NCBI GenBank assembly: GCA_035291665.1
Contig: DATDRP010000006.1
Location: forward strand, 209,255-273,254
DNA: 64,000 nt
Origin: Patescibacteria group bacterium
GTDB lineage: Bacteria; Patescibacteriota; Microgenomatia; UBA8517
Direction of reading: 5' to 3'
Shown here: positions 3,760 to 21,608 of the stretch, one piece after another
Layout: the number at the start of each line of letters is the position of its first letter
How positions within the stretch are numbered: position 1 is the first letter of the stretch
Notes under the pieces: model-generated
What the model was told of the DNA's origin: nothing
The model's database searches: none
Seen by the model: only the letters and a program-made list of their open reading frames with translations
Position numbers and translations under genes: made by a program

Positions 3760-4590
3760 ATGAGTATCGTAGAATCAATTAACGGAAAAGATAAACCCAA
3801 AGGAAATTGGATCAGTGTGGAACATGAGGGGAGTTTTCATCAGATAGAAATTGCAAAAACTCCGGAACAGTTGGCCGAAGCAAAGGCGCTTGATGATTTG
3901 GTTTTTGCCGGACATGTTGGTATAACAATGAATGAATTATATGAAATTGCTAATAATGGAGCGGTATTGCTCATGCGAGATATTAATGGGAATTTAATTG
4001 GAGAATCACAGGTAATAACCTCACCAATATCCGAACATCCTAATTTAGATAAAGATGAAGCTTATAATTATGGAACTGCTATATATCCGGGATTACAGAA
4101 TAACGGATTGGCTCAAGTCTTATTCAAAGCTCAAGAACAGATTGCAATCGAAGCTGGAAAATCAAAGAGCACTCTGACAGTCAGGCTTGAAAATGCCCAA
4201 AGCATCAGGGGAAGATTTAAATCTGGCTTCTACATTGTAGGCTATGATCCAAACCATTATGGTTCGTTCGAAGATGGTGGAGCAAGATTAATTATGGAAA
4301 AAAACCTTTCAAGAAAAAATGGGGTGGTCCCAGTACCTGTTCTTGCGGGAATGGTTGATCAGGGAAAGGTGAGAATTATAAATGGCCATACCGAAAGTCC
4401 CAATATGAAAGATGAGGGGTTGTTAATTGGAATCGGTGTTAATTCAGGCGACGAAATAGACCATGCGGCACATGTTGCTGTGAAAGAAGTTTTTGAAAAT
4501 AATAAACATCTTGGTATCGGTATTCTAAAGTCATGTGAATTTAAGACTAAAGTTGACAAAACAAGCCTGTTAGTTTTTACTGAAAAATAA
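3760..4590 (+). CDS. hypothetical protein, possibly GNAT-fold in the N-terminal half
   Basis: Weak GNAT motif-A-like LQNNGLAQVLF...IEAGKS segment. The assignment is tentative. Confidence 0.35.
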   Translation: MSIVESINGKDKPKGNWISVEHEGSFHQIEIAKTPEQLAEAKALDDLVFAGHVGITMNELYEIANNGAVLLMRDINGNLIGESQVITSPISEHPNLDKDEAYNYGTAIYPGLQNNGLAQVLFKAQEQIAIEAGKSKSTLTVRLENAQSIRGRFKSGFYIVGYDPNHYGSFEDGGARLIMEKNLSRKNGVVPVPVLAGMVDQGKVRIINGHTESPNMKDEGLLIGIGVNSGDEIDHAAHVAVKEVFENNKHLGIGILKSCEFKTKVDKTSLLVFTEK

Positions 4591-4600
4591 TTCACCTCAA

Positions 4601-5347
4601 ATGGTAAAAACAAATCCTTCGCATCTTAAGGAAAAATATAAATTATTATCAGAGAAATTAGATAGAGAATTACTTAAGATATCTTTCAAGGAAAATAAAG
4701 AAAATATAGTCTATTTGCCGGATTTAATAAAAAAACAAAATGTTGAGATGGTTATCAAGTACAAGGAAAATGCGTATTTAAGGGAATCAGTGGCTTTAAA
4801 TCTAATTAAAGCTGCAAAATATTTTAAAAATAAAAACTTTACTCTTGAATTGGAAAGTGCCTATAGAAGCATAAATGAACAAAAAAAACGGTTTATAAGT
4901 AGATATGCTTCAATTAAAAAAAAATATCCTAACAAACCAAAATCTGAATTATTGAAATTAGCAAATACATATACTGCAGGAATTTTAATATTAGCTGCTC
5001 ATACTGCAGGTGCGGCTGTTGATGTTCTTTTAAAAGACTGGAAAAATTCCAGTCTTGATTTTGGGACAGACTATCTTAATGGTGATGAAAAATCTGTTAC
5101 AGATTATCCTAATTTATCAAAAAAAGTTAAAGCAAATCGGAAAATTCTGAAAAAGGGTATGGAAAAATTTGGTTTTACTAATTACCCATTCGAATATTGG
5201 CATTACAGTATAGGTGATGTTTTTGCAGCTTATTTTAATAAACAAAAATATGCAAAGTATGGACCTGTTAATTATGATATGAAAAAAAATATCACAATAT
5301 TTTCGAACAATAAAAAAGATTTATATAAATTTTTTAAAATTAGATGA
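4601..5347 (+). CDS. M15-family zinc D-Ala-D-Ala dipeptidase-like protein (VanX/VanY-type)
   Basis: AAHTAGAAVDV matches the SxHxxGxAxD motif. EYWHYS matches the ExxH motif. Confidence 0.5.
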   Translation: MVKTNPSHLKEKYKLLSEKLDRELLKISFKENKENIVYLPDLIKKQNVEMVIKYKENAYLRESVALNLIKAAKYFKNKNFTLELESAYRSINEQKKRFISRYASIKKKYPNKPKSELLKLANTYTAGILILAAHTAGAAVDVLLKDWKNSSLDFGTDYLNGDEKSVTDYPNLSKKVKANRKILKKGMEKFGFTNYPFEYWHYSIGDVFAAYFNKQKYAKYGPVNYDMKKNITIFSNNKKDLYKFFKIR

Positions 5348-6719: not shown

Positions 6720-7634
6720 ATGTCGAAAGAGTCTACTATAGAGCAAGAAAAATTTGCGAAAGTTATACCACATATAGAAAATGAGTATTCGCCTCTTAAA
6801 AAAGTCTTAGTTAACAGGAATCCTCAATTGGTAACAACCTTTACAGATCTTGTGGTAAACCCTATACAAGGCAGATCTTTGGAAAAAGTTGAACATAGAG
6901 GAGAAATCAAAGTGCTTCCAGGTGCTGCTGAATGTCATGGAAATTTATTGAAGGTCTTATCTGAAAATGGTGTCGAACTTTTATATTCCGATGTTACTCC
7001 CATCAAAGAAGGTCATACACCACTCTTTACCAGAGATGTGGGGGTTGTTATTGATAACAGAGTATTACCTTCCAAAATGAGGTACGAGTATCGTTCAGTG
7101 GAGGTTCCGGAAATGTTGTCCAAAATTTCTGATGGCAGCATTATCAGAACAAACCAAGAATATAAAATAGAAGGAGGGGACGTCGTTTTTTTGGAACCAA
7201 ATCTTCTTCTAATTGGTATTGGTCCCCGAACCGATGTAAATGGATTAAATTTATTGAAGGGTATTTACCCGGGTAAAGAATTTATATCTTTTTCAACAGT
7301 CCGTAAAGAAGAAGCATTTCACATTGATACAAATTTGGGTATTTTGGGAAAGAAGCATTTGGTATATCTTCCCGAACTTGTCCCACAAGATGTTGTTAAC
7401 CTCTTAAAAGATCGGGATTATACATTTGTTGAAGCCGAAATGTCAGAACATGATACTTGCTGTACAAATATATTAGCTATTAATGATAGGAGAATAATCG
7501 CCCCTGCTGAAAATAAAATTACGAACTCAAGGATTCGAAAGTCGGGGGTTGAGGTAATAGAGGTATCACTTAAAGACATATTATCTTTCGGAGGGGGCCC
7601 TCACTGCTTAACACTCCCTCTTGTCAGAGATTAA
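6720..7634 (+). CDS. pentein-fold guanidino-group modifying enzyme (amidinotransferase / DDAH / arginine deiminase superfamily)
   Basis: N-terminal EYSPLKKVLVNRNP motif. C-terminal GGGPHCLTLPLVRD with the catalytic Cys in the position seen in arginine deiminase, DDAH and amidinotransferases. Confidence 0.6.
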   Translation: MSKESTIEQEKFAKVIPHIENEYSPLKKVLVNRNPQLVTTFTDLVVNPIQGRSLEKVEHRGEIKVLPGAAECHGNLLKVLSENGVELLYSDVTPIKEGHTPLFTRDVGVVIDNRVLPSKMRYEYRSVEVPEMLSKISDGSIIRTNQEYKIEGGDVVFLEPNLLLIGIGPRTDVNGLNLLKGIYPGKEFISFSTVRKEEAFHIDTNLGILGKKHLVYLPELVPQDVVNLLKDRDYTFVEAEMSEHDTCCTNILAINDRRIIAPAENKITNSRIRKSGVEVIEVSLKDILSFGGGPHCLTLPLVRD

Positions 7635-9306: not shown

Positions 9307-10566
9307 ATGGACTTTCAAAAGAATGATTATGTGAGAGTAGCTTCTTACGAAGGACAACCCGGTAAAGTCAAGAAAGTTGTCTTGCTTTATTCAGGTGGTT
9401 TGGATACTTCAATAAGCCTTAAGTGGATCCAGGATACCTACAAGGCGGAAGTGGTTACGCTCACGGTTGATTTAGGGCAACCTACGGAAGACATTAGTCT
9501 TATAAAGAAAAAGGCTCTTAAGTTAGGGGCAAAAGCTGCTTATGTACTTGATTTGAAAAGAGAATTTGCAAACGGTTACATTTCAAAAGCAATTAAGGCA
9601 AATGGATTATACGAAGGTAAATACCCTTTATCAAGTGCAATATCGAGATATGTGACTGTTAAGGCAGGCGTCGATATAGCGAGAAAAATTAAAGCTGATG
9701 CAATTGCGCACGGATGTACTGGTAAAGGTAACAGTCAGGTAAGGTTCGACCTAGCAATAACAACACTAGACCCAAAGTTAAAAGTAATTGCCCCAATTCG
9801 CGAGTGGGGTATATCAAGGGATGCTGGTTACAAGTATGCAAAGGAAAACAATATACCAGTCGTAATCAACAAAAAAACCTTATACTCAGTTGACGAGAAT
9901 CTTTGGGGAAGAGGAATTGCAAGCGGTATACTTGAAGATCCATCAAAGGAACCTCCTCAGGATACATTAGGCTGGGTAACACGACCTGAAGATGCACCAA
10001 ATAAACCGGAGTATGTCACATTAACCTTCAAAAATGGTGTTCCTACAGAATTGAATGGAAAGAAAATGGAACTGTACAAGCTTATTATGAAGCTTAATAG
10101 TGTTGCTGGAAAACATGGTGTCGGGTTAATTGACCACGTTGAAGATAGAATTGTTGGACTTAAATCTAGGGATTATTATGAATGTCCAGGAGCAGTAACG
10201 ATATTAGAAGCCCACAAGGATCTAGAAAAATATGTTTGTACTATTCATGAGAATCTATTCAAAGAGATTATTGATAGTAAATGGGCACAGATGGCATATT
10301 TTGGATTGTGGTTTGATCCTCTCATGGATGCTCTGAATGCGTTTGTTGATGTGGTAAACGAAAAGGTAACTGGAATAGTTAGACTAAAACTTTATAAAGG
10401 TGTAGTTATTGTTGTAGGGAGGGAATCAAAATATGCGCTTTATGATATGAAACTAAACACTTACTTTACAGGGCAAACCTTCAATAGACAGGCTTCAACT
10501 GGATTTATAGAGCTCTTCGGTCTCGAAAGTAAAATGGCTAATTTACTAAGAAAGAGTAATCGTTAG
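9307..10566 (+). CDS. argG: argininosuccinate synthase
   Basis: VVLLYSGGLDTSISL (PP-loop SGGLDTS), plus overall length and conserved blocks typical of ArgG. Confidence 0.9.
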   Translation: MDFQKNDYVRVASYEGQPGKVKKVVLLYSGGLDTSISLKWIQDTYKAEVVTLTVDLGQPTEDISLIKKKALKLGAKAAYVLDLKREFANGYISKAIKANGLYEGKYPLSSAISRYVTVKAGVDIARKIKADAIAHGCTGKGNSQVRFDLAITTLDPKLKVIAPIREWGISRDAGYKYAKENNIPVVINKKTLYSVDENLWGRGIASGILEDPSKEPPQDTLGWVTRPEDAPNKPEYVTLTFKNGVPTELNGKKMELYKLIMKLNSVAGKHGVGLIDHVEDRIVGLKSRDYYECPGAVTILEAHKDLEKYVCTIHENLFKEIIDSKWAQMAYFGLWFDPLMDALNAFVDVVNEKVTGIVRLKLYKGVVIVVGRESKYALYDMKLNTYFTGQTFNRQASTGFIELFGLESKMANLLRKSNR

Positions 10567-10774: not shown

Positions 10775-11986
10775 ATGGCTGAACTTATTAAGACATCAGA
10801 ATACTTCATAGATCTAGAAAATAGATTTGGTGCCAGAAACTATAAGCCGTTAGACGTTGTAATTGAAAAAGGTGATGGTGTTTGGGTGACCGATGTCAAC
10901 GGAAAAACCTATATTGACATGTTAAGTGCTTATAGTGCTCTTAACCAAGGACACAGGCACCCGAGAATTGTCGAAGCCGCCCAAAATCAGTTGAATAAAA
11001 TTACACTTACTTCAAGAGCTTTTAGAAATGACCAATTCGGACCATTTATTGAAAAGTTGAGTGAAATAACTAATAAAGAAATGGTACTTCCGATGAATTC
11101 AGGATCAGAAGCTGTGGAAACCGCATTAAAAACAGCAAGAAAATGGGGGTACAAGAATAAATTGAAGGAGGATGAAGAAGCTCGGATTATTGTTTGTCGG
11201 GGCAACTTTCATGGGAGAACTATTAGCGTGATTAGTTTTTCTACTGAAGAACAATATCGGGATGGCTTTGGACCATACACACCCGGTTTCGATGTGATTC
11301 CATACGGGGATACAAATGCGTTGGAAAACGCGATAAAGCCAAATACTGTAGGATTTTTGGTTGAGCCAATTCAAGGTGAAGGTGGTGTAATAGTTCCTCC
11401 AAAAGGATACTTGCGTGACGCTTTCGACATTTGCCGAAAAAATAATGTACTTTTTATGGCCGATGAGATTCAAACTGGTTTGGGAAGAACTGGTAAAATG
11501 TTTGCCTGTGATCATGAAAACGTAATACCCGATGTTTATATTTTGGGTAAAGCACTTTCTGGCGGAATACTTCCTCTTTCTGCCGTAGTAGCAAATAAAA
11601 ATATACTTGGGGTATTTGAACCTGGTGATCATGGATCAACTTTTGGAGGAAACCCCCTGGCTTCAGCGGTAGGTCTTGCATCGCTTAATGTTCTGGTTTA
11701 TGAGAATTTGGCAGAGAACTCTGCTCAAATGGGAGAATATTTTCAAGATAGATTGAAAAGGATGGAATCTCCCCATGTTAAAGACATAAGAGGAAAAGGA
11801 CTTCTTATTGGAGTTGAATTGGAACCCGCTGCCGGAAAAGCCCGAGGTTTTTGTGAGCGGTTGCAGGAGGTGGGGGTGTTGGCCAAAGAAACCCATGATG
11901 TTGTTGTTAGATTTGCTCCTCCACTAATAATTAATAAGAATCAAATAGACTGGGCAATGGAGGGAATCGAAAGTGTCTTTAAATAA
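10775..11986 (+). CDS. rocD: ornithine aminotransferase (class III PLP aminotransferase; ArgD/RocD family)
   Basis: Near-identity of blocks to RocD/OAT: GARNYKPL, DMLSAYSALNQGHRHP, KITLTSRAFRND, FHGRT, EIQTGLGRTGK, THD..VRFAPPL. An acetylornithine aminotransferase (ArgD) role cannot be excluded. Confidence 0.8.
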   Translation: MAELIKTSEYFIDLENRFGARNYKPLDVVIEKGDGVWVTDVNGKTYIDMLSAYSALNQGHRHPRIVEAAQNQLNKITLTSRAFRNDQFGPFIEKLSEITNKEMVLPMNSGSEAVETALKTARKWGYKNKLKEDEEARIIVCRGNFHGRTISVISFSTEEQYRDGFGPYTPGFDVIPYGDTNALENAIKPNTVGFLVEPIQGEGGVIVPPKGYLRDAFDICRKNNVLFMADEIQTGLGRTGKMFACDHENVIPDVYILGKALSGGILPLSAVVANKNILGVFEPGDHGSTFGGNPLASAVGLASLNVLVYENLAENSAQMGEYFQDRLKRMESPHVKDIRGKGLLIGVELEPAAGKARGFCERLQEVGVLAKETHDVVVRFAPPLIINKNQIDWAMEGIESVFK

Positions 11987-12030: not shown

Positions 12031-13188
12031 ATGACCGAACACGAAAAACTATTATCAAGTCTTATTGAAATAAAGTCATACTCAGGTGAAGAGAAAGATA
12101 TTCGTGGTTATATAAAAAAATGGTTTAAAGAGCGGAAAATTGATTCTTTTCGGCAGGATGAAAATTTAATAGTTCATTTTGAAGGTGCAGACAGGTCCAA
12201 AGCATTTATTTTTAATTCCCATATGGATACTGTCAATAGGGGGGACGCAGCTTGGGAATATGGACCTTGGAAGCCAACTAAAGTAGGAAATACGCTTGTT
12301 GGATTAGGAGCGAGTGATATGAAGTCCGGACTTACAGCTTCAATGATTTTGGCGGAAAAATATTCGAACGAAAAGCCCCCAGTTGATCTTTGGTTCACAT
12401 ATGTGACAAGAGAGGAAGTAGATGGTTCCGGAACCGATAGTTTTGCACGGTGGTTCTCTCAAAATAAGTACAACATTCAATACAAAGACAAGGCGGGGAT
12501 ATTTACTGAGCCTACGGGATTGAAAGAAATTGAACACGGACATAGAGGCAATTTATTCTTAATCGCGCAAGCAGAGGGTGAATCCGGACATTCATCTCGA
12601 CCTGGCGATATTAAAGGAACTTTAGCAGTGAAACAAATGTTTAATTTTTCTCAATCTTTTCAAGAACAAGTAAAGTTATGGAATGAAAAATATCAAAGTA
12701 AGTATTTTAATCCGGCAATCACTTTGGGAGAACTAACCTCAATCCAGGCGGGTGTAAACGTTGTTACAAAAAACGGACTTCCCGTAATAGTTCCAGCGTC
12801 ACCAAATAAATTTCCGTCTCTTTGCGTTGCGACATTCGATTTGAGAACCACACCGGAATTTCATGCTGCAGCTTTGAAGAAAGTCGAAGATTTAGCCAAA
12901 AAAGAGGGAATTAAGGTTGATTTACTCTATCCGGAAGCACCTGCTGGATTTACTGACCCTCAAGAAAAGATTATTGAAATAACGAAAAGTAAAGTACCGG
13001 ATGCAATATTGAAAGTATCGCAAGGATCGGCTGATTTGGGCTTTTTAACAGGGTTGGGAATAAAAGCAATAATATTTGGTCCCGGTGAAAAACTTCAGGC
13101 ACATAAGACTAATGAATATTGTTATCCTGTTAAAATTCCTCAAGCAGTTGACCTATATCAAGCAATCGTCGAATCTTGGGCAAAGTGA
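12031..13188 (+). CDS. M20-family metallopeptidase (ArgE/DapE-like deacylase)
   Basis: FNSHMDTV, GLGASDMKSGL and E..G motifs of the M20 family. 385 aa. Confidence 0.7.
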   Translation: MTEHEKLLSSLIEIKSYSGEEKDIRGYIKKWFKERKIDSFRQDENLIVHFEGADRSKAFIFNSHMDTVNRGDAAWEYGPWKPTKVGNTLVGLGASDMKSGLTASMILAEKYSNEKPPVDLWFTYVTREEVDGSGTDSFARWFSQNKYNIQYKDKAGIFTEPTGLKEIEHGHRGNLFLIAQAEGESGHSSRPGDIKGTLAVKQMFNFSQSFQEQVKLWNEKYQSKYFNPAITLGELTSIQAGVNVVTKNGLPVIVPASPNKFPSLCVATFDLRTTPEFHAAALKKVEDLAKKEGIKVDLLYPEAPAGFTDPQEKIIEITKSKVPDAILKVSQGSADLGFLTGLGIKAIIFGPGEKLQAHKTNEYCYPVKIPQAVDLYQAIVESWAK

Positions 13189-14015: not shown

Positions 14016-14768
14016 ATGATCGAAAAGTTGAATATAAGCGTCTTTGAAAGTTCATTCAAGTCAGAAAAAGAAGCAGAATTGAAAACAGGTTTGAATGGAT
14101 GGAGTGACTTGGTAATGAAAGGCTATGGATTTTCTGGTGACAGTGTGCAAAGGAGTCGGCAATTTGGTTATGAATATTCGGAAAATCCGGATATAAATAT
14201 AATCGCAATTCATTCTAAAGATGAGGTAATTGCGACCTTAACTCTTAGTAAAACGAATATATTTGGAGAATATAATTCGTATTGGTTAAATGGGATAGTA
14301 ATTCTTCCTGAATATAGACAGAAAGGGTTTGGTACAAAATTAATTAAAGAGGCAGCGTTTTTAACAAGCGCTGATGTTTTTGTCGGATCAACGAAAAACC
14401 CAGCGGCAGTAATGACTGTTGTAAATGGAGTACTCGATTGTAGTATGAGATCATACTACGGAATGTATGAAGTAACATCTGAAGTCAATTCAGGTAGATC
14501 TGACCTGCATACAAATTATATTTTAGAATATTTAAAAGCAAAAGGTATTGACAACCCGTCATTGCCTCTTGATGAGAATTCGGTGGTTTTATATAAAGAT
14601 ACTGATGTTTTATCACCCGACATTCCAGCAATTGAAACCTACCCTCAATATTTAAAGGAAGCTTTTGTGCCGGTTATCAGAGCCCAAATATCTGTAGGAA
14701 GGACTAAAACTGCCGTCATGCCATTGATTTCAATTGATGAAAAACTTTTATATGGAAAAACTAAATAG
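14016..14768 (+). CDS. GNAT N-acetyltransferase
   Basis: GIVILPEYRQKGFGTKLIKEA matches motif A. Confidence 0.5.
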   Translation: MIEKLNISVFESSFKSEKEAELKTGLNGWSDLVMKGYGFSGDSVQRSRQFGYEYSENPDINIIAIHSKDEVIATLTLSKTNIFGEYNSYWLNGIVILPEYRQKGFGTKLIKEAAFLTSADVFVGSTKNPAAVMTVVNGVLDCSMRSYYGMYEVTSEVNSGRSDLHTNYILEYLKAKGIDNPSLPLDENSVVLYKDTDVLSPDIPAIETYPQYLKEAFVPVIRAQISVGRTKTAVMPLISIDEKLLYGKTK

Positions 14769-15612
14769 AGATGATGAAGACAAGAAAATTGAATTGTGGT
14801 TTGAGATCGAACAAATTGGAGGTGGTATATTCGTAATCGGTGAACCATATCACCGGGAAGAGGTTTTTTGCTACTTTATTGAAGAAAGAGATAAAGATTT
14901 GTTAATCGATACCGGCATGGGGGTTGTACCAATTACAAAGGCTTTGGAAAAAATTCGAAACTCCAATAAAGAGCTTGTTGCTGTTAATTCTCATGCTCAT
15001 TTTGACCACATTGGGGGCAATTATCAATTAGATAATATATTAGTTCCTGATAATGATTGGGAAATTAATATTATTCGTAAAGGATGGAACCACAGTTCTT
15101 TAGAAAGGTATGGATTTAGTAAAGAGTTTAAGAAGAAACCGATCGGTTTTATAGCCGACACTTTTGAAATTCCAGGTTATGAGAAAATATTACCTGTGCT
15201 TAAAGAAGGTTTTATAATTGATTTAGGTGACAGAAAAATAGAGGTTCTTGAAACCCCTGGCCATACTCCTGGTGGAGTATGTTTTTTCGATAGAAGTAAC
15301 GAGAAATTATTCACATCGGATTTGCTTTATCAGGGACCGCTTTTTTGTTTCGAAAATGAGAGTTCAATTGAAGATTATTATAGTAGTTTAGTGAAACTTA
15401 GAGAGATGAAAAACAACATTAAGCAGATTCACCCTGGCCATAATTATTATGTAGCACAACCGACCCTAATTGATTCCGCATTAGAGTGTTTTGATAGGAT
15501 AATAAGTCATCTCAAACCGGATTATGAAGAAAAATTTAATGATCAGACTTTATTTGTATATTCACATCCGTCTGTTGAAAGTTTAAGTGTATTGGTTAAT
15601 AGTAAAGGTTGA
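14734..15612 (+). CDS. metallo-beta-lactamase fold hydrolase
   Basis: NSHAHFDHIGGN (HxHxDH), plus downstream His/Asp ligands (TPGHTPG). Confidence 0.65.
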   Translation: MMKNFYMEKLNRDDEDKKIELWFEIEQIGGGIFVIGEPYHREEVFCYFIEERDKDLLIDTGMGVVPITKALEKIRNSNKELVAVNSHAHFDHIGGNYQLDNILVPDNDWEINIIRKGWNHSSLERYGFSKEFKKKPIGFIADTFEIPGYEKILPVLKEGFIIDLGDRKIEVLETPGHTPGGVCFFDRSNEKLFTSDLLYQGPLFCFENESSIEDYYSSLVKLREMKNNIKQIHPGHNYYVAQPTLIDSALECFDRIISHLKPDYEEKFNDQTLFVYSHPSVESLSVLVNSKG

Positions 15613-16115: not shown

Positions 16116-17786
16116 ATGGCTGTAGAAAAAAAAATTGAGGCTGAAATTCTTACAAAAGCGTTGATTAAACAACAGAGTATAAGCAAACCTGGTGAGGCAG
16201 AATATAGGATTGAAGAGACTAAATTAGCCGAACAAATAAACAAATGGTTTGAGGAAAAAAATGTTCCCTCCTTTTTACAAGAACTCCCAGACGGTCGAAA
16301 AAACGTTTTCGCATTTGTAGCAGGGAAAAGAGATGAAACAATAGTAATTGCTGGTCATTTTGATACGGTTGATGTTAAAGATTATCTTCGAATGAAACTG
16401 CATCCTTTCGACTCTGACACCTTGGCTGAAGAGCAAGAGATTGATACTGAAAGGTATGTTGTCGGTAGGGGTGCTTTTGACATGAAATCAGGAATTGCTG
16501 TTGGGATGACCTTAATGAATAAATGGAATGAAAATAAAGATAATCTTAATGGATCAGTGCTTTTTGTTGCCACATGTGACGAAGAAAACGATTCTTTCGG
16601 GATACTCAATGCGGCCGATGTTCTACTAGCCGCAAAAGGTAGCGCAATTGATGACGGTAAATTAACCAATCAAGTCAAAAAGCTTACTGGAGGTAGAGAA
16701 CTAAATTTACAAGGAGTAATAAACATGGATTATACAACTGAAAGATTCCCTGGAGATAAAGAATACCATGTTTGGAGTGGAACAATAGGAAAACTTTTAC
16801 CAAGTATAATTGTCAGGGGAAAAGAAACGCATGTGGGTGAACACTTTGGTGGTTTTCATGCCTCATCCTTAATGTCGAGAATAGTTTCAGAATTTGAAGG
16901 AAATATGGAATTTGCAGGGAATAGCGTTCCTCCAACTGTCCTTAAATTGAGTGATGGTAGAGATTTATATAATGTTATGACTGAGAGTACTTTAAGAGCG
17001 TATGTAAATGTGTTTAGTGTAGGCCAAACACCCGCTGAAATCATAGATAAGTTGAAAGATAAAGTGACCCAGGTTGTTGGCGATTATTCAGAATCAATTA
17101 AAAACAATTATGGAATTTACAAAAATAGAATGGGTTTACCAAATGAGGTTGAAATCCCCGATTGGGGAAAGCGAACGAAGGTTATGACCTATTCCGAGCT
17201 ATTGGGGTTGGCTAATGAGAAAATCGGAAAAAGTGAAGTAGACAATCTTATAAAGAAAATAGCCTCAACTGTTCAAGGTGACGGGAGAGATGTAAGTTTC
17301 GCCATTGTTGACGCTTTGCTAACAAGTTCAGAGCTTAAAGATCCCGCTGTTATAATTTTCTACTCTCCACCTTACTATCCCTATATTAAACCTGATAATG
17401 GGAAACTCTATGAAGCGACAAAGGCAAAATCTGATGAAGTTGGAAAAGAATATGGTGTATCAATTACCATGCATCACTTTTATCCTTATATTTCGGATAT
17501 GAGTTACCTGAAACTTGAACCGGAAATCAGTTCAAGTATAAATAAATTAACCGGAGAAATGCCTGTCTGGGGTGTAGAGAACGAAAATGGAAAAAAGGTT
17601 TATCACGTCGATCTTGATAAAGTGGCTAAATTGGGGTTACCTGTAGTCAACGTTGGTCCTTATGGACATGGGGCGCATAAAACCGAAGAAAGGGTAGAGA
17701 AGAAGTATTCGTTCGAAATTCTTCCTGATCTGGTAGATCGTATTGTCAATAATATATTTAATGATGACAAAACCCCTTCATTGTGA
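16116..17786 (+). CDS. RocB-like M20-family peptidase (arginine utilisation protein RocB family)
   Basis: GHFDTVDV and GRGAFDMKSG M20 motifs in a roughly 556-aa protein. Size and motifs resemble Bacillus RocB. Confidence 0.6.
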   Translation: MAVEKKIEAEILTKALIKQQSISKPGEAEYRIEETKLAEQINKWFEEKNVPSFLQELPDGRKNVFAFVAGKRDETIVIAGHFDTVDVKDYLRMKLHPFDSDTLAEEQEIDTERYVVGRGAFDMKSGIAVGMTLMNKWNENKDNLNGSVLFVATCDEENDSFGILNAADVLLAAKGSAIDDGKLTNQVKKLTGGRELNLQGVINMDYTTERFPGDKEYHVWSGTIGKLLPSIIVRGKETHVGEHFGGFHASSLMSRIVSEFEGNMEFAGNSVPPTVLKLSDGRDLYNVMTESTLRAYVNVFSVGQTPAEIIDKLKDKVTQVVGDYSESIKNNYGIYKNRMGLPNEVEIPDWGKRTKVMTYSELLGLANEKIGKSEVDNLIKKIASTVQGDGRDVSFAIVDALLTSSELKDPAVIIFYSPPYYPYIKPDNGKLYEATKAKSDEVGKEYGVSITMHHFYPYISDMSYLKLEPEISSSINKLTGEMPVWGVENENGKKVYHVDLDKVAKLGLPVVNVGPYGHGAHKTEERVEKKYSFEILPDLVDRIVNNIFNDDKTPSL

Positions 17787-18334
17787 AAGAAACAGTTGAA
17801 CGATTAGTTATAAAAGAAAATCGTTTCGATAGTTTAAAGGTTGTTGAAATTATTGTTTCAAGTCAAAAGGGCAAGTTTAGACTTAACAATTTGCTTCCCC
17901 AGGGATGGATTTTTGTTGAAGGCAATAAACCGATCCATACTGACCCTGAAAGGAAAAGGATTCAGATACCTCAAACGCAAAAAGACAAAAAAACAAATAA
18001 GGAAGTCCCTTTCTTGTCCGTTCCCGGTAATACAATTGGACTTCTACACGAAGCCGGACATGCTTTTATAGATGAAGAAATGTCAATGGATGATATTGAG
18101 TTAGATTTGTATTTAAGACAAAAGATGAATTACCAAAGTCTTTCTTCTTTTACACAGGTAGAGTTGAAAGAATATGTAAGACTAGTTTTAAAAGCGGAGA
18201 AAAAAGCTTGGGACTTTGCCTTGAGTACATATAGTAATTTATTGAAAATGGGATTTAATATAGAACCGGATTTAAATAAAAACGATCTAAAAAGTTTAGC
18301 TGCCAGGAAGATGAAATCTTATCCAATTCCTTGA
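17783..18334 (+). CDS. hypothetical protein with HExxH-like motif (LLHEAGHAF)
   Basis: ORF overlaps the previous stop. Possible metallopeptidase-like zinc site. Confidence 0.4.
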   Translation: MKETVERLVIKENRFDSLKVVEIIVSSQKGKFRLNNLLPQGWIFVEGNKPIHTDPERKRIQIPQTQKDKKTNKEVPFLSVPGNTIGLLHEAGHAFIDEEMSMDDIELDLYLRQKMNYQSLSSFTQVELKEYVRLVLKAEKKAWDFALSTYSNLLKMGFNIEPDLNKNDLKSLAARKMKSYPIP

Positions 18335-18421
18335 TGAATACAATTTCTAAGGCTAATATTTGAACAGTAATAGTAATAACTTGACAGTATGATATATACT
18401 ATATACACATTTATTATAAAT

Positions 18422-18466
18422 ATGAGACGTGCTCGTACACTTAGAAATACCAGGAGGATTAATTGA
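18422..18466 (+). CDS. candidate Arg-rich leader peptide MRRARTLRNTRRIN
   Basis: 14-codon ORF with 6 Arg codons (AGA CGT CGT AGA AGG AGG), read from the sequence. Directly followed by two hairpin-plus-T-run structures. Confidence 0.35.
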   Translation: MRRARTLRNTRRIN

Positions 18467-18483
18467 ATCCTTTTTTACTTTGA

Positions 18484-18506
18484 CCCGCGATAAGCGGGTT
18501 TTTTTT
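18484..18506 (+). terminator. intrinsic terminator CCCGC-gataa-GCGGG plus T8, ending 5 nt before the ATG at 18512
   Basis: Perfect 5-bp GC stem with a run of 8 T. A weaker hairpin GGATT-aattg-AATCC plus T6 lies at 18456-18476. Confidence 0.6.
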
Positions 18507-18511
18507 GACTT

Positions 18512-19828
18512 ATGGCAGAAAGAATTAGAGTAGAACAAAAAGAATTAAAAACCCCCGATATGGGTGTATTTGAAGAGACGGCAGAACTGAAAAGGGTGAT
18601 GATGTGGGGACTTCCCGGAGCAGAAACTGTTTTGGGACAACTGTTACCTAAAAAAAGGAGTTGTTTTCAAAAATCTTTTAATGTTTCAGAAGCCAGAGAT
18701 GAGATGGAAGGCGCAATGGATTTGCTCAGAAAAAAAGGAGTTGAAATTTTTGTGGTGAAGGACGAATGGGCAAAAATGATCCAAGAAAAAGGAATAAAAG
18801 CAGATTACGGAATTGATGAACTTAAATCAGAATTAAAGGATAAGGGGGAGTACTTGTACCTGAAATATAAAAAAGAACGCGATGAGGAATATCAAAAGGA
18901 AAAGAAAGAAGCATTGGAAAAAGGGGAAAGGCCTGAAGAACCTGCTGGTCTGGAAGTTTTGGAACTCTTGGACTCAATATTAGACGCAGATGTTAAAAAA
19001 TATGGAGAGAATGCGGCAGTCGTAATGAATCAGAAACTATCCATTGATGGATATTGCTGTAAAGACGGAGAAAATCTTCCTTTGTCAAATATTTTTTACG
19101 CGAGAGATCAGTCAAACCTGATGGGCTCAACATGGATTTGGTCGTCAATGAAGCATGAAATCAGAAAAGCAGAAGTTCCGATTTATAAAGAAGTTGTCAG
19201 ATATTCCGGAATTCTTAAGGATCAGGGTATTACTGAAGTGAATGTCGAGGAAACAAAAGAAGGTGTAGGATTGTTTGAGGGTGGGGATGGGATTGTAAAT
19301 AATGGTATAGCATATATAGGTCTTGGCGGACGATCCGATCTCGAAGGAATAAAACAGGCGGCAAAACCAATTCTTGAAAGCGGATTGAGACTCGTGATTT
19401 GTCGGGATAGAAATAGGGCGCGTTTGGGTGAAGACGAAATGGACGCGATGCATCTGGATACTTTTTGGATGCCTACGGATTTGAATGAAGTAGTTGGATG
19501 TCCTGATGAGATAAAAAACAGGAAAGCATTTGAAGTTTATTTGGATGAAAAATCTCAAATTAAATTTAAATCATTGGGGAGTTTTTCAGATCATTTGCAT
19601 CAGAGGGAGATTGATATGGTGCCGTTAACGATAGACGAACAAAGAAAATATGCTCCGAATTTTCTTAACCTGGGTGGAGGGATTATCATACTGTCATTAG
19701 CGAATGGTAATAACTTGACGGAAGAACTAACCAGTAGGGGAAAAGTTGTTTATAACGCTGATTTTCAGGAGGTTACCAAAGGTTTCGGGGGGCTACATTG
19801 TGCTACCGCTTCACTTTTAAGAGTTTAA
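18512..19828 (+). CDS. pentein-fold enzyme, arginine deiminase-like (amidinotransferase superfamily) with a long charged insertion
   Basis: MGVFEETAELKRVMMWGLPGAE resembles the ADI/DDAH N-terminal motif. C-terminal GGLHCATASLLRV holds the catalytic Cys. The true start may be the internal MGVF at 18560. Confidence 0.55.
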   Translation: MAERIRVEQKELKTPDMGVFEETAELKRVMMWGLPGAETVLGQLLPKKRSCFQKSFNVSEARDEMEGAMDLLRKKGVEIFVVKDEWAKMIQEKGIKADYGIDELKSELKDKGEYLYLKYKKERDEEYQKEKKEALEKGERPEEPAGLEVLELLDSILDADVKKYGENAAVVMNQKLSIDGYCCKDGENLPLSNIFYARDQSNLMGSTWIWSSMKHEIRKAEVPIYKEVVRYSGILKDQGITEVNVEETKEGVGLFEGGDGIVNNGIAYIGLGGRSDLEGIKQAAKPILESGLRLVICRDRNRARLGEDEMDAMHLDTFWMPTDLNEVVGCPDEIKNRKAFEVYLDEKSQIKFKSLGSFSDHLHQREIDMVPLTIDEQRKYAPNFLNLGGGIIILSLANGNNLTEELTSRGKVVYNADFQEVTKGFGGLHCATASLLRV

Positions 19829-19829
19829 T

Positions 19830-21608
19830 ATGCCAATAACAAAAGAACGCGAAATAGGCTACGACTTCACAAATGAGAGGTACCCAATTGTTGGTTTTGA
19901 AAAGGGTATAAAAGGTCTTATAAAAAATTACACCGGTTATAACGGTGAAATTACCATAACAGAAGCCCCTGCAAATTCGGGATCAGATTTTGGAATTCAA
20001 ACTTCTTCTATAGCAAGAGCCAAAGGTGAAAATCCCGTTAGCGTGGCACAAAGTTTATCTCAAAAAGGTTGGTCGCATCCATATATTGATGAAGTAAGAA
20101 GTCAAGGTCCATATTTGAATTTCCGCTTGGAATACGGCACATTTGGTTTGGATGTTGTAAATGGAATTCTCAGCGAGGAAGCAAATTATGGCATGGAAAG
20201 AAAGAAAGAGAAAGGACGGGTAATAGTTGACATGTCTTCACCGAATATAGCCAAAAGAATGAGTTATGGCCATTTGAGATCAACTATTATTGGTGACGCA
20301 GTATCGAATTTATATATAAGCCAAGGCTATGATGTGGTTCGTGATAACCACATTGGAGACTGGGGTACTCAATTCGGAAAGCAAATTGCAGCGATAAAGA
20401 TGTGGGGGGACGAGAAAGAATTGATGAGATCATCGGAACCCGTCGGGGATTTGCAGGAACTTTATCAAAAATTCCATCAAGAAGCTGAAAAACATCCCGA
20501 ATTAGAAGACTTGGGAAGACAGTGGTTTTTGAAATTAGAGCAGGGAGATAAAGAAGCCAGAAGACTTTGGAAAATGTGTGTAGATTTATCAATGAAGGAG
20601 TTTGACCGGGTATATAAAACTTTGGGTGTAAGATTTGATGTTGCAATGGGAGAAAGTTTCTATGAAAAGATGCTTCCGTCGGTGATGAAACAGGTAGATC
20701 GAAGTCCGATCTCAAGCAGAAGTGAAGGAGCATTAGTTGTTGATATGAAAGATAGAAATCTGGGTGTGGCAATTATACAAAAATCTGATGGAGCCAGTGT
20801 TTATATGACAAGAGATTTGGCAACTGCTATGTACAGAGAAAAGAAAATGGGAGCAGAGAAAGCAGTCTACGTTGTAGGGGAAGATCAAAAGCTCTATTTT
20901 CAACAACTGTTTCAAATTTTACAAGGATTAGGTTATGAAATAGGTGAAAAAAGCGACCATGTTTATTTTGGGATGGTCAGGATGGAAGAGGGGAAAATGT
21001 CGACCAGGAAGGGAAGAACCATTCTTCTGGATGATGTTATTAAGGAAGGTTTAGAAAGAGAAAGACAAGTTATATCAAATAGAAATCCCAAACTTTTTAA
21101 TTCAAGAAAAAGAGAAGAGGTAGTAAGACAGGTTGCAATAGGGGCACTCAAATGGAACGATTTATCACGTGACCCGAGAAGATCTATAGTCTTCGATTGG
21201 GATGAAGCATTAAATATGGAAGGTTTTTCTGCTCCATATGTTCAATATGCGGCAGTGAGGGCGAATGCAATTTTAGAACATGCTGGTGTTAATCATAGGC
21301 ACATTGCTCAAGATAATCCTGAAGGTGATGATGTATATAAAGAATCCAGTGAACAAAGTTTAATAAAGAAACTTGCTGCTTATCCAAAAGCTGTAAAACT
21401 TGCTCAGGAACAAAACAATCCATCGATTGTTGCAACCAACGTTTATGAAGTCGCAAAAGAATTTAATTCTTTCTATAGGAACAATCCTGTTTTAAGGGGA
21501 ACGGATAAGAATTTAATTCTTTCAAGATTGAAGTTGGTGGGTGCGACAAGTCAGGTGATAAAAAACGGTCTCGGGATATTGGGAATAGAAGTCCCGGATG
21601 TGATGTAA
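19830..21608 (+). CDS. argS: arginyl-tRNA synthetase
   Basis: Class I HIGH-type SYGHLRSTIIGD, KMSTRKG (KMSKS-like), and DALR-type anticodon-binding YVQYAAVRANAIL. Ends ...DVM. Start is 2 nt after the upstream stop. Confidence 0.9.
   Translation: MPITKEREIGYDFTNERYPIVGFEKGIKGLIKNYTGYNGEITITEAPANSGSDFGIQTSSIARAKGENPVSVAQSLSQKGWSHPYIDEVRSQGPYLNFRLEYGTFGLDVVNGILSEEANYGMERKKEKGRVIVDMSSPNIAKRMSYGHLRSTIIGDAVSNLYISQGYDVVRDNHIGDWGTQFGKQIAAIKMWGDEKELMRSSEPVGDLQELYQKFHQEAEKHPELEDLGRQWFLKLEQGDKEARRLWKMCVDLSMKEFDRVYKTLGVRFDVAMGESFYEKMLPSVMKQVDRSPISSRSEGALVVDMKDRNLGVAIIQKSDGASVYMTRDLATAMYREKKMGAEKAVYVVGEDQKLYFQQLFQILQGLGYEIGEKSDHVYFGMVRMEEGKMSTRKGRTILLDDVIKEGLERERQVISNRNPKLFNSRKREEVVRQVAIGALKWNDLSRDPRRSIVFDWDEALNMEGFSAPYVQYAAVRANAILEHAGVNHRHIAQDNPEGDDVYKESSEQSLIKKLAAYPKAVKLAQEQNNPSIVATNVYEVAKEFNSFYRNNPVLRGTDKNLILSRLKLVGATSQVIKNGLGILGIEVPDVM

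Follow-up and report, generated by a model that had tools for sequence, protein, structure and literature searches.

In a 64,000-nucleotide stretch of DNA from a Patescibacteria group bacterium (Microgenomatia, UBA8517; contig DATDRP010000006.1 of assembly GCA_035291665.1, positions 209,255 to 273,254; hereafter the window), a short open reading frame (ORF) rich in arginine codons and a strong intrinsic terminator stand between a promoter and two genes, an arginine-deiminase-like (ADI-like) gene and argS, which encodes arginyl-tRNA synthetase. We consider it highly probable that this leader is an arginine-specific, ribosome-dependent transcription attenuator for both genes. To the specific mechanism proposed here we give an even chance: occlusion of the terminator by a ribosome coupled to RNA polymerase, similar to the control of pyrBI and pyrE in E. 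coli but with inverted logic, the operon being ON when Arg-tRNA is plentiful.

Anatomy of the leader

The original prediction for this region had listed a TTGACA hexamer, an arginine-rich upstream ORF, a hairpin with a T6 run, a strong terminator with a T8 run and an ATG at 18512, and each of these lies where it had been placed. All are on the plus strand. The leader promoter has its -35 hexamer, TTGACA, at 18381-18386 (conserved in orthologous leaders), and its -10 region (18402-18409) can be read as TATACA at 15-nt spacing or TACACA at 17-nt spacing, either of them weaker than the family consensus TATATT at N17. The leader ORF, MRRARTLRNTRRIN followed by a TGA stop, spans 14 codons at 18422-18466 and has arginine-rich orthologs at 17 loci. 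Six of its codons specify Arg (AGA, CGT, CGT, AGA, AGG, AGG), with the tandem AGG-AGG at 18452-18457. This codon pair is also the 5′ arm of a first hairpin (hairpin 1), AGGAGGAUU-AAUUG-AAUCCUUUU followed by U6, which occupies 18452-18476 (core GGAUU/AAUCC at 18456-18470, extended stem 18452-18474, U6 at 18471-18476) and holds the stop codon in its loop and 3′ arm. Hairpin 1 has a folding energy of -6.6 to -7.1 kcal/mol and taken alone is weak relative to shuffled sequence (z = -1.5). The main intrinsic terminator follows, GACCCGC-GAUAA-GCGGGUU plus U8 at 18482-18506 (stem 18482-18500; -12 kcal/mol), and the ADI-like ATG at 18512 is 5 nt past its U tract. The 111-nt leader as a whole folds into two successive hairpins, and does so better than shuffled sequence (z = -2.9). 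On the opposite strand, a TTG-initiated ORF of 61 aa (18353-18538, minus strand) overlaps the whole leader; being the reverse complement of a conserved leader, it is probably spurious.

Conservation of the unit

The comparison started from homologs of the ADI-like protein of the window, and loci (given L numbers below) came from a genome-contig scan (7), from contigs encoding the homologs and from a metagenome scan, the latter two supplying the closer relatives. It covers 17 distinct leaders, whose ADI-like proteins are 42-75% identical to that of the window, and the alignment holds 18 leader sequences.

The promoter-ORF-terminator-ATG unit recurs in these 17 distinct relatives, which are Microgenomates-like Patescibacteria. 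TTGACA is found in 16 of the 17 orthologous leaders (the other has TTGACT), 36-48 nt upstream of the leader start codon, and the full TTGACA-N17-TATATT promoter in nine. The distance from the -10 element to the leader ATG (TTG in one locus) is 7-19 nt, which would imply a 5′ untranslated region of about 0-12 nt. The ORF varies from 13 to 22 codons. It is followed by the GC-rich CCCGC/GCGGG terminator with U6-8 and, 0-12 nt later, by the ADI-like ATG; the terminator stem is near-invariant (97.8% of cells paired in the 18 aligned leaders). In 16-17 of the 17 leaders there is an ORF that opens with ATG, has 13 or more codons and ends beside the terminator, against 0.9 expected from dinucleotide shuffles: the arrangement is not due to chance. 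Comparison of orthologous loci, proposed in the original prediction as a check on the upstream ORF, accordingly came out in its favour, with the arginine-rich ORF kept in 16-17 of the 17 leaders.

The upstream contexts of the loci are unrelated, and two of them (L016 and L017) have identical leaders with different flanks. The possibility that the terminators mark the 3′ end of an upstream operon was rejected, as the unit moves with the ADI-like gene into unrelated contexts. At one locus (L008) an insertion-sequence integrase (rve) gene at 4169-4829 lies directly upstream of the leader (4865-5000); the leader ORF there, MISSYIKLMERRKTS, is degenerate with just 2 Arg, and hairpin 1 is absent. 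A further variation concerns the far end of the leader. In 10 of the 18 aligned leaders (e.g., L002, L018-L020, L023, L025, L027), though not in that of the window, an AUG directly follows the U tract, as UUUUUU(A)AUG (alignment A2, columns 103-112). These AUGs open mini-ORFs of 1-6 codons that end at or overlap the ADI-like start codon, and the TTTAAT in the same relatives could be a poor -10 element.

Dependence on read-through

The original prediction held that no promoter fits between the terminator and the start codon, so that the genes depend on read-through, and the relatives bear this out. No sigma-70-like promoter or -10 element fits between the terminator and the ADI-like ATG in the window, and the gap in relatives is just 0-12 nt; expression from the leader promoter must therefore pass the terminator. 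For a promoter formed by TTGACC at 18479-18484 and the U tract, which would overlap the terminator, the window offers no -10 element, and the TTTAAT that follows the U tract in some relatives is without the critical A at position 2; this possibility was set aside. An internal start at MGVF (18560) combined with a promoter in 18507-18560, which had been named as an arrangement that would refute the original prediction, was rejected. At the position of M17 (of MGVF), the two closest relatives examined (L008 and L011) have a Leu, with TTA or CTT as its codon, every aligned homolog has a variable N-terminus of 16-25 residues ahead of a conserved LGVFEE motif, and TTGACT at 18506-18511 has no usable -10 element. 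Judged from these alignments, the annotated ATG at 18512 is the true start.

Neither the leader ORF nor the ADI-like gene is preceded by a Shine-Dalgarno (SD) sequence, which is normal here because the genome seldom uses them (7 of 59 genes). GC content of the window is low (~37%), and in many of its genes the -10 box precedes the ATG by only 6-10 nt, so closely that leaderless-type mRNAs would be implied. The AGGAGG of the leader was considered as an SD sequence for a downstream start and rejected: besides the rarity of SD sequences, no start codon is conserved at SD spacing.

Strong intrinsic terminators are themselves uncommon in this DNA. Only two are intergenic in the whole 64 kb window, including that of the ADI-like leader; both directly precede a start codon, behind a TTGACA promoter and a short ORF, and none stands at a gene 3′ end. 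A survey of terminator positions in ~300 kb of related DNA (loci L001-L034 and the window) gave the same picture: strong intrinsic terminators are rare and nearly all lie 0-13 nt before start codons, not at gene 3′ ends.

These positions bear on the possibility that the leader senses nothing, the promoter-to-terminator unit being an independent small gene (for a basic micro-protein or a ~100-nt small RNA, sRNA) and the downstream genes being served by constitutive leaky read-through or by an upstream operon. With a strong promoter and an efficient-looking terminator, the short transcript should be abundant, and trans-acting sRNAs and leader peptides derived from attenuators are known (rnTrpL and peTrpL, for example). 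Rfam gave no match anywhere in the window at gathering score, T-box included; a permissive search of 18330-18560 did return weak matches to Hfq-type sRNAs, but all matches were driven by the terminator and far under the cut-offs (the best being OmrA-B, at 24 bits versus 40; Trp_leader reached 12 versus 41). An independent gene has only a slim chance of being the explanation: in every case 0-12 nt separate the unit from the ADI-like ATG, it accompanies that gene into different contexts, nearly all strong terminators in the related DNA occupy 5′ leader positions rather than gene ends, and a specific enrichment for Arg beside arginine genes would be hard to account for.

Arginine bias of the leader ORF

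Arg codons make up 100 of the 303 codons (33%) in the ORF frame of the 17 leaders, or 4-12 per leader, while the other two frames contain 5 and 10 Arg codons and 32 stops each. In the genes of the window, Arg accounts for 3.7% of codons. The ratio of Arg to Lys is 100:16 in the leaders versus 3.7%:8.3% in window proteins, so the selection is for Arg and not for positive charge. AGG is over-represented, and Arg positions alternate between the AGR and CGN codon families among loci. The Arg codons begin early (at codon 2-3 in 9 of the 17 leaders) and are spread over the whole ORF, a distribution that is poor for a position-specific stall but ideal for a cumulative race between ribosome and polymerase.

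An RNA-protein switch would read the same purines differently: repeated AGGA/GGAG motifs would bind a CsrA-, TRAP- or HutP-like regulator or the anti-SD sequence, and the ORF would be incidental. Several leaders do have three or four GGA motifs (e.g., AGGAUCAGGAGGAUUGAAAGGAGA in L018), GAAAGGAGA is the most conserved nucleotide stretch, and the few window genes with a strong SD sequence indicate that an anti-SD sequence exists. But the frame, start codon and stop position are kept despite changes in length (with 32 stops in each of the other frames), the enrichment extends to Arg codons that are not part of a GGA motif (AGA, CGU), which interchange with those that are, and the array of GGA repeats is absent in the window, L011 and L014. 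We regard such a switch as highly improbable.

Folding and ribosome position

The effect of a translating ribosome was modelled by moving a footprint (A site -15 to +12) codon by codon along each of the 17 leaders and computing the probability of the terminator stem by equilibrium folding. No antiterminator was found in any of the 17 leaders, the terminator probability remaining at least 0.85 with the ribosome at any Arg codon. When the RNA was folded without the 3′ arm of the terminator, the 5′ arm showed no consistent alternative partner, and RNAalifold recovered the terminator as the sole structure in the 18-sequence alignment. The original prediction had been unable to identify a clean antiterminator pairing in the window, and folding with the ribosome masking each codon extends that statement to all 17 leaders. 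The absence is a real property of the family, because a second leader in the window, which serves as a positive control, shows an antiterminator by the same test.

That second leader (the 2.5 kb leader, at 2455-2626) carries a TTGACA-N16-TATAGA promoter; its ORF, at 2493-2552, encodes MFEDFSVTTKLILSLRRRT. Its antiterminator GGUGAGAGG competes with a terminator CCUCUCAC..GAGAGG plus U7. With ribosome masking, the GGUGAGAGG:CCUCUCAC pairing is favoured at the S-V-T-T-K codons, not at RRR, and the terminator probability is 0.42-0.49; the stop codon is 39 nt from the terminator. On this modelling it is a separate, classical leader-peptide attenuator, and it is probably threonine-sensing rather than arginine-sensing because the gene downstream is ThrC-like. 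Orthologs are present at L020 (480-630) and L023 (~200-330). The ADI-like leader had been described as a second arginine-responsive attenuator beside this one. The link to arginine and the dependence on read-through are retained; the notion of a second copy is not, since the 2.5 kb leader differs in its antiterminator, its S-V-T-T-K codons and its ThrC-like target.

A different relation between ribosome and terminator is suggested by the end of the ORF. Across the 17 leaders, the distance from the leader stop codon to the terminator stem is -2 to 15 nt, with a median of 7. With a ribosome at the stop codon and a conservative footprint of +12 nt, the terminator probability drops to 0-0.56 in 10 of the 17. 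In E. coli, repression by the translating ribosome is almost complete for a terminator 5-9 bp past a stop codon, a separation of 17-18 bp gives termination efficiencies of 0.12-0.8, and full efficiency is reached only beyond 30 bp; the repression is lost once translation is uncoupled (PMC4824070). With a stall motif upstream of the pyrL terminator, slower translation leads to more termination (PMC5021804). With no antiterminator, Arg codons from codon 2-3 onward and a stop codon that abuts the terminator, stalling of the ribosome should therefore raise termination.

These results are also what decides on classical starvation-induced attenuation (as in pheST, trp and his), in which a ribosome stalled at hungry Arg codons would block termination and low Arg-tRNA would switch on argS and a salvage enzyme. 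Starvation normally does induce aminoacyl-tRNA synthetase genes, whether through the pheST leader peptide, T-boxes or a His leader before a hisS paralog (PMC2965389), and the surrounding genes are suggestive of arginine biosynthesis or salvage (in the window ArgG, an aminotransferase and M20 deacylases; in L057 DDAH-ArgG-ArgH beside ADI-argS). The leaders themselves speak otherwise: beyond the want of any antiterminator in the 17 (0/17) and the persistence of the terminator (probability at least 0.85) with the ribosome at any Arg codon, the terminator stem is 14-24 nt (hand-counted) past the end of the last Arg codon, out of reach of a ribosome stalled there, Arg at codons 2-3 in 9 of the 17 would trap the ribosome far upstream, and the leader is absent from stand-alone argS genes. 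We judge the classical scheme unlikely; its logic of read-through on Arg starvation is probably not what this anatomy predicts. Because no alternative pairing exists and the Arg codons start at codon 2-3, the predicted logic is instead inverted relative to classical attenuators.

Hairpin 1 is the less regular of the two structures. It is more stable than shuffled sequence at 12 of the 17 loci (mean z = -1.65) and insignificant at the other 5, shows a few compensatory changes but shifts in position, and the U6 tract after it is limited to the window and L011. Tandem terminators, as originally described for the window, are thus not a feature of the family. The classical scheme can claim one point here: in the window and L011, hairpin 1 and its U6 would be masked by a ribosome that stalls at the final RR codons. 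By analogy with the trp, pyrBI and speFL leaders, hairpin 1 fits best as a putative RNA polymerase pause site that would synchronise polymerase and ribosome; in the window it is probably either such a pause site or a weak first terminator.

Three variant loci lend support to occlusion, as far as their sequences can be read. The leader ORF MQNRIIRNLNQTGSTRHVAGFFMA of L005 (1020-1152) runs through its terminator and stands before a methyltransferase-MBL-DDAH-ADI-like-argS series whose methyltransferase is PrmA-like. At L007 (3899-4040) an Arg-rich stretch is fused in frame to the ADI-like N-terminus (MKMLTERRTELFSDQLEKSRGGRRSRRHVENVEALRPPEKVGVF...), with a 10-bp GC hairpin and U6 inside the ORF, an arrangement that appears to be an in-ORF variant of the attenuator. 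In L001 the stop codon of an upstream DDAH gene lies 11-12 nt before the terminator, which is itself 5 nt from the ADI-like ATG. The same architecture was also seen with another amino acid: at L011 (1060-1185) a Phe-rich ORF, MFQFIFRSVFEVIGI, stops 3 nt before a terminator ahead of a PrmA-like methyltransferase gene.

Proposed mechanism

In the proposed mechanism, transcription would begin at the conserved TTGACA promoter, and translation of the near-leaderless short ORF would start the moment it leaves RNA polymerase. The last Arg codons make up the 5′ arm of hairpin 1, which would probably hold the polymerase until the ribosome comes. The strong terminator would then form unless the leading ribosome stands on the leader stop codon or close to it, where it would cover the terminator's 5′ arm. 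With no antiterminator, the signal would be the speed of the ribosome through 4-12 Arg codons: when Arg-tRNA(Arg) is plentiful, the ribosome would stay coupled, the terminator would be occluded and the operon would be ON; when Arg-tRNA(Arg) is scarce, the ribosome would lag, the terminator would form and the operon would be OFF.

Several considerations weigh against this scheme. Both the occlusion and the direction of regulation are extrapolated from anatomy and from experiments in E. coli rather than in bacteria of the candidate phyla radiation (CPR). In 7 of the 17 leaders, including that of the window (15 nt to the main terminator), 9-15 nt separate the stop codon from the stem, and there a strict +12 nt footprint falls short. 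Expression that is ON under arginine-replete conditions would place the essential argS under positive feedback, an odd design, and the genomic context appears to fit arginine salvage, for which ON-when-starved would be expected. The related loci share phylogeny, so the statistics overstate their independence. Finally, the non-Arg positions of the peptide are semi-conserved in a hydrophobic/Arg pattern (e.g., IRIRRIERRQ), which pure codon counting would not need.

Conservation of this kind is one point in favour of an arrest peptide, similar to TnaC and SpeFL, that would sense free L-arginine: the Arg-rich nascent peptide and L-arginine in the exit tunnel would together block release at the stop codon, and the parked ribosome would cover the intrinsic terminator and turn the ADI-like gene on. 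The pattern does go beyond a count of Arg, with a consensus of (I/L)R(I/L)RRI(E/N)RR(Q/R)xx(L/I)-stop in which the RR pair is fixed at 3-4 codons from the stop; the stop codon abuts the terminator; and the target belongs to a catabolic-type enzyme family. Part of the conservation, however, is accounted for by the nucleotide needs of hairpin 1 (GAAAGGAGAC). The leaders are also only 13-22 residues long, far below SpeFL (34), their sequences vary widely (MRRARTLRNTRRIN of the window is a poor fit to the consensus), all three stop codons occur, and there is no sequence homology to any known arrest peptide. We therefore think an arrest peptide quite unlikely.

Downstream genes and genomic context

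The ADI-like gene (18512-19828, plus strand) matches the arginine-deiminase family PF02274 and is far under the arcA cut-offs; against the PDB its product has one marginal match, to the Pseudomonas ADI (E = 3e-4). The ATG of argS (19830-21608, plus strand) is one base after the ADI-like stop codon (19826-19828), and argS is therefore co-transcribed with the ADI-like gene. A RelA/SpoT homolog lies downstream of argS.

The succession of an ADI-like gene and argS is almost universal in the loci. One locus (L003) has the leader and the ADI-like gene with no argS, and the stand-alone argS genes of an Amesbacteria locus and a Pacebacteria locus (L055 and L056) have neither leader nor terminator. Going by these arrangements, the leader tracks the ADI-like gene rather than argS, and this fits control of a catabolic-type enzyme that is ON when arginine is plentiful.

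In the window, the two genes belong to a long same-strand island of arginine-related genes (2624-23522, plus strand). It includes, all on the plus strand, a DDAH-like gene (6720-7634), argininosuccinate synthase (ArgG; 9307-10566), a class-III aminotransferase (ArgD-like; 10775-11986), two M20 ArgE/DapE-like deacylases (12031-13188 and 16116-17786) and an MBL hydrolase (14737-15612); the RelA/SpoT homolog is counted in it as well. The island, together with the placing of ADI-argS beside DDAH-ArgG-ArgH in a distant relative (L057), suggests a possible role in the salvage of citrulline or methylarginine to arginine.

Comparison with known systems

The coupling attenuators of E. coli pyrBI (leader pyrL) and pyrE (leader rph) are mechanistically the closest known systems. 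As here, translation of a leader ORF extends as far as an intrinsic terminator or beyond it, and there is no antiterminator. Termination is averted only while the leading ribosome stays directly behind the polymerase, and upstream pause sites help to synchronise the two, as is proposed for the Arg leader. The distances from stop codon to terminator found here (-2 to 15 nt) fall within the range of repression by the ribosome in E. coli (PMC4824070), as a coupling attenuator would have it, and the ORFs of L005 and L007 run through the terminator. The variable in pyrBI and pyrE is the speed of the polymerase (through UTP-sensitive pausing) and their peptides have no amino-acid bias, whereas the Arg leader has an ORF that is 33% Arg, so that the speed of the ribosome should vary, and it serves arginine-related genes in a CPR host with few SD sequences and near-leaderless mRNAs.

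The classical attenuators (trpL, hisL, pheL, thrL and pheM of pheST) share with the Arg leader a short ORF rich in codons for the amino acid of the downstream genes and an intrinsic terminator between the leader and the first gene; pheST also has an aminoacyl-tRNA synthetase gene downstream. They differ in the pairing of antiterminator and anti-antiterminator, absent in all 17 leaders here (17/17), and in the clustering of their regulatory codons over region 1, whereas those of the Arg leader run from codon 2-3.

TnaC and SpeFL (orf34) likewise place a leader peptide before an inducible enzyme of amino-acid-degrading type, with a hairpin that takes in the ORF's 3′ end, and in both a ribosome located at the stop codon keeps the transcript from being terminated, as is proposed here. 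SpeFL has an Ile-Arg-Arg motif whose two Arg codons tune expression (10.1101/604074; PMC6386406). What the ribosome blocks in TnaC and SpeFL is the loading of Rho at a rut site, whereas the Arg leader has a canonical intrinsic hairpin and U tract. Their peptides, of 24-34 residues, have defined sensor and effector domains and no sequence similarity to the Arg leader.

T-box riboswitches are the usual regulators of aminoacyl-tRNA synthetases in Firmicutes and some other phyla. They resemble what is proposed here in the terminator-based control of a synthetase gene that responds to the status of the cognate tRNA or amino acid. Unlike them, the Arg leader is only ~100 nt long, has no stem I, specifier loop or T-box sequence and no Rfam T-box match, and its predicted sensor is a translated ORF.

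Significance

Searches of the literature turned up neither an account of an Arg-rich leader ahead of ADI or argS genes nor one of leader peptides or attenuation in CPR bacteria (Patescibacteria), and the leader-peptide systems listed in an older review are confined to Proteobacteria, Actinobacteria and some Firmicutes (PMC2965389). The window appears to hold two leader-peptide attenuators, the Arg-rich member of the pair defining a conserved family not represented in Rfam. If an arrest peptide were at work after all, the leader would represent a metabolite-sensing arrest peptide tied to Rho-independent termination in the candidate phyla radiation. If the occlusion mechanism proposed here is correct, the family would be an amino-acid-specific attenuator with inverted logic, one that combines the codon run of trp and his with the antiterminator-free coupling of pyrBI and is ON when charged tRNA is plentiful. 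It would also provide indirect evidence for tight coupling of transcription and translation in ultra-small CPR bacteria, with their few SD sequences and near-leaderless mRNAs. The Arg leader, finally, offers a handle on the function of a widespread pair of ADI-like and argS genes.

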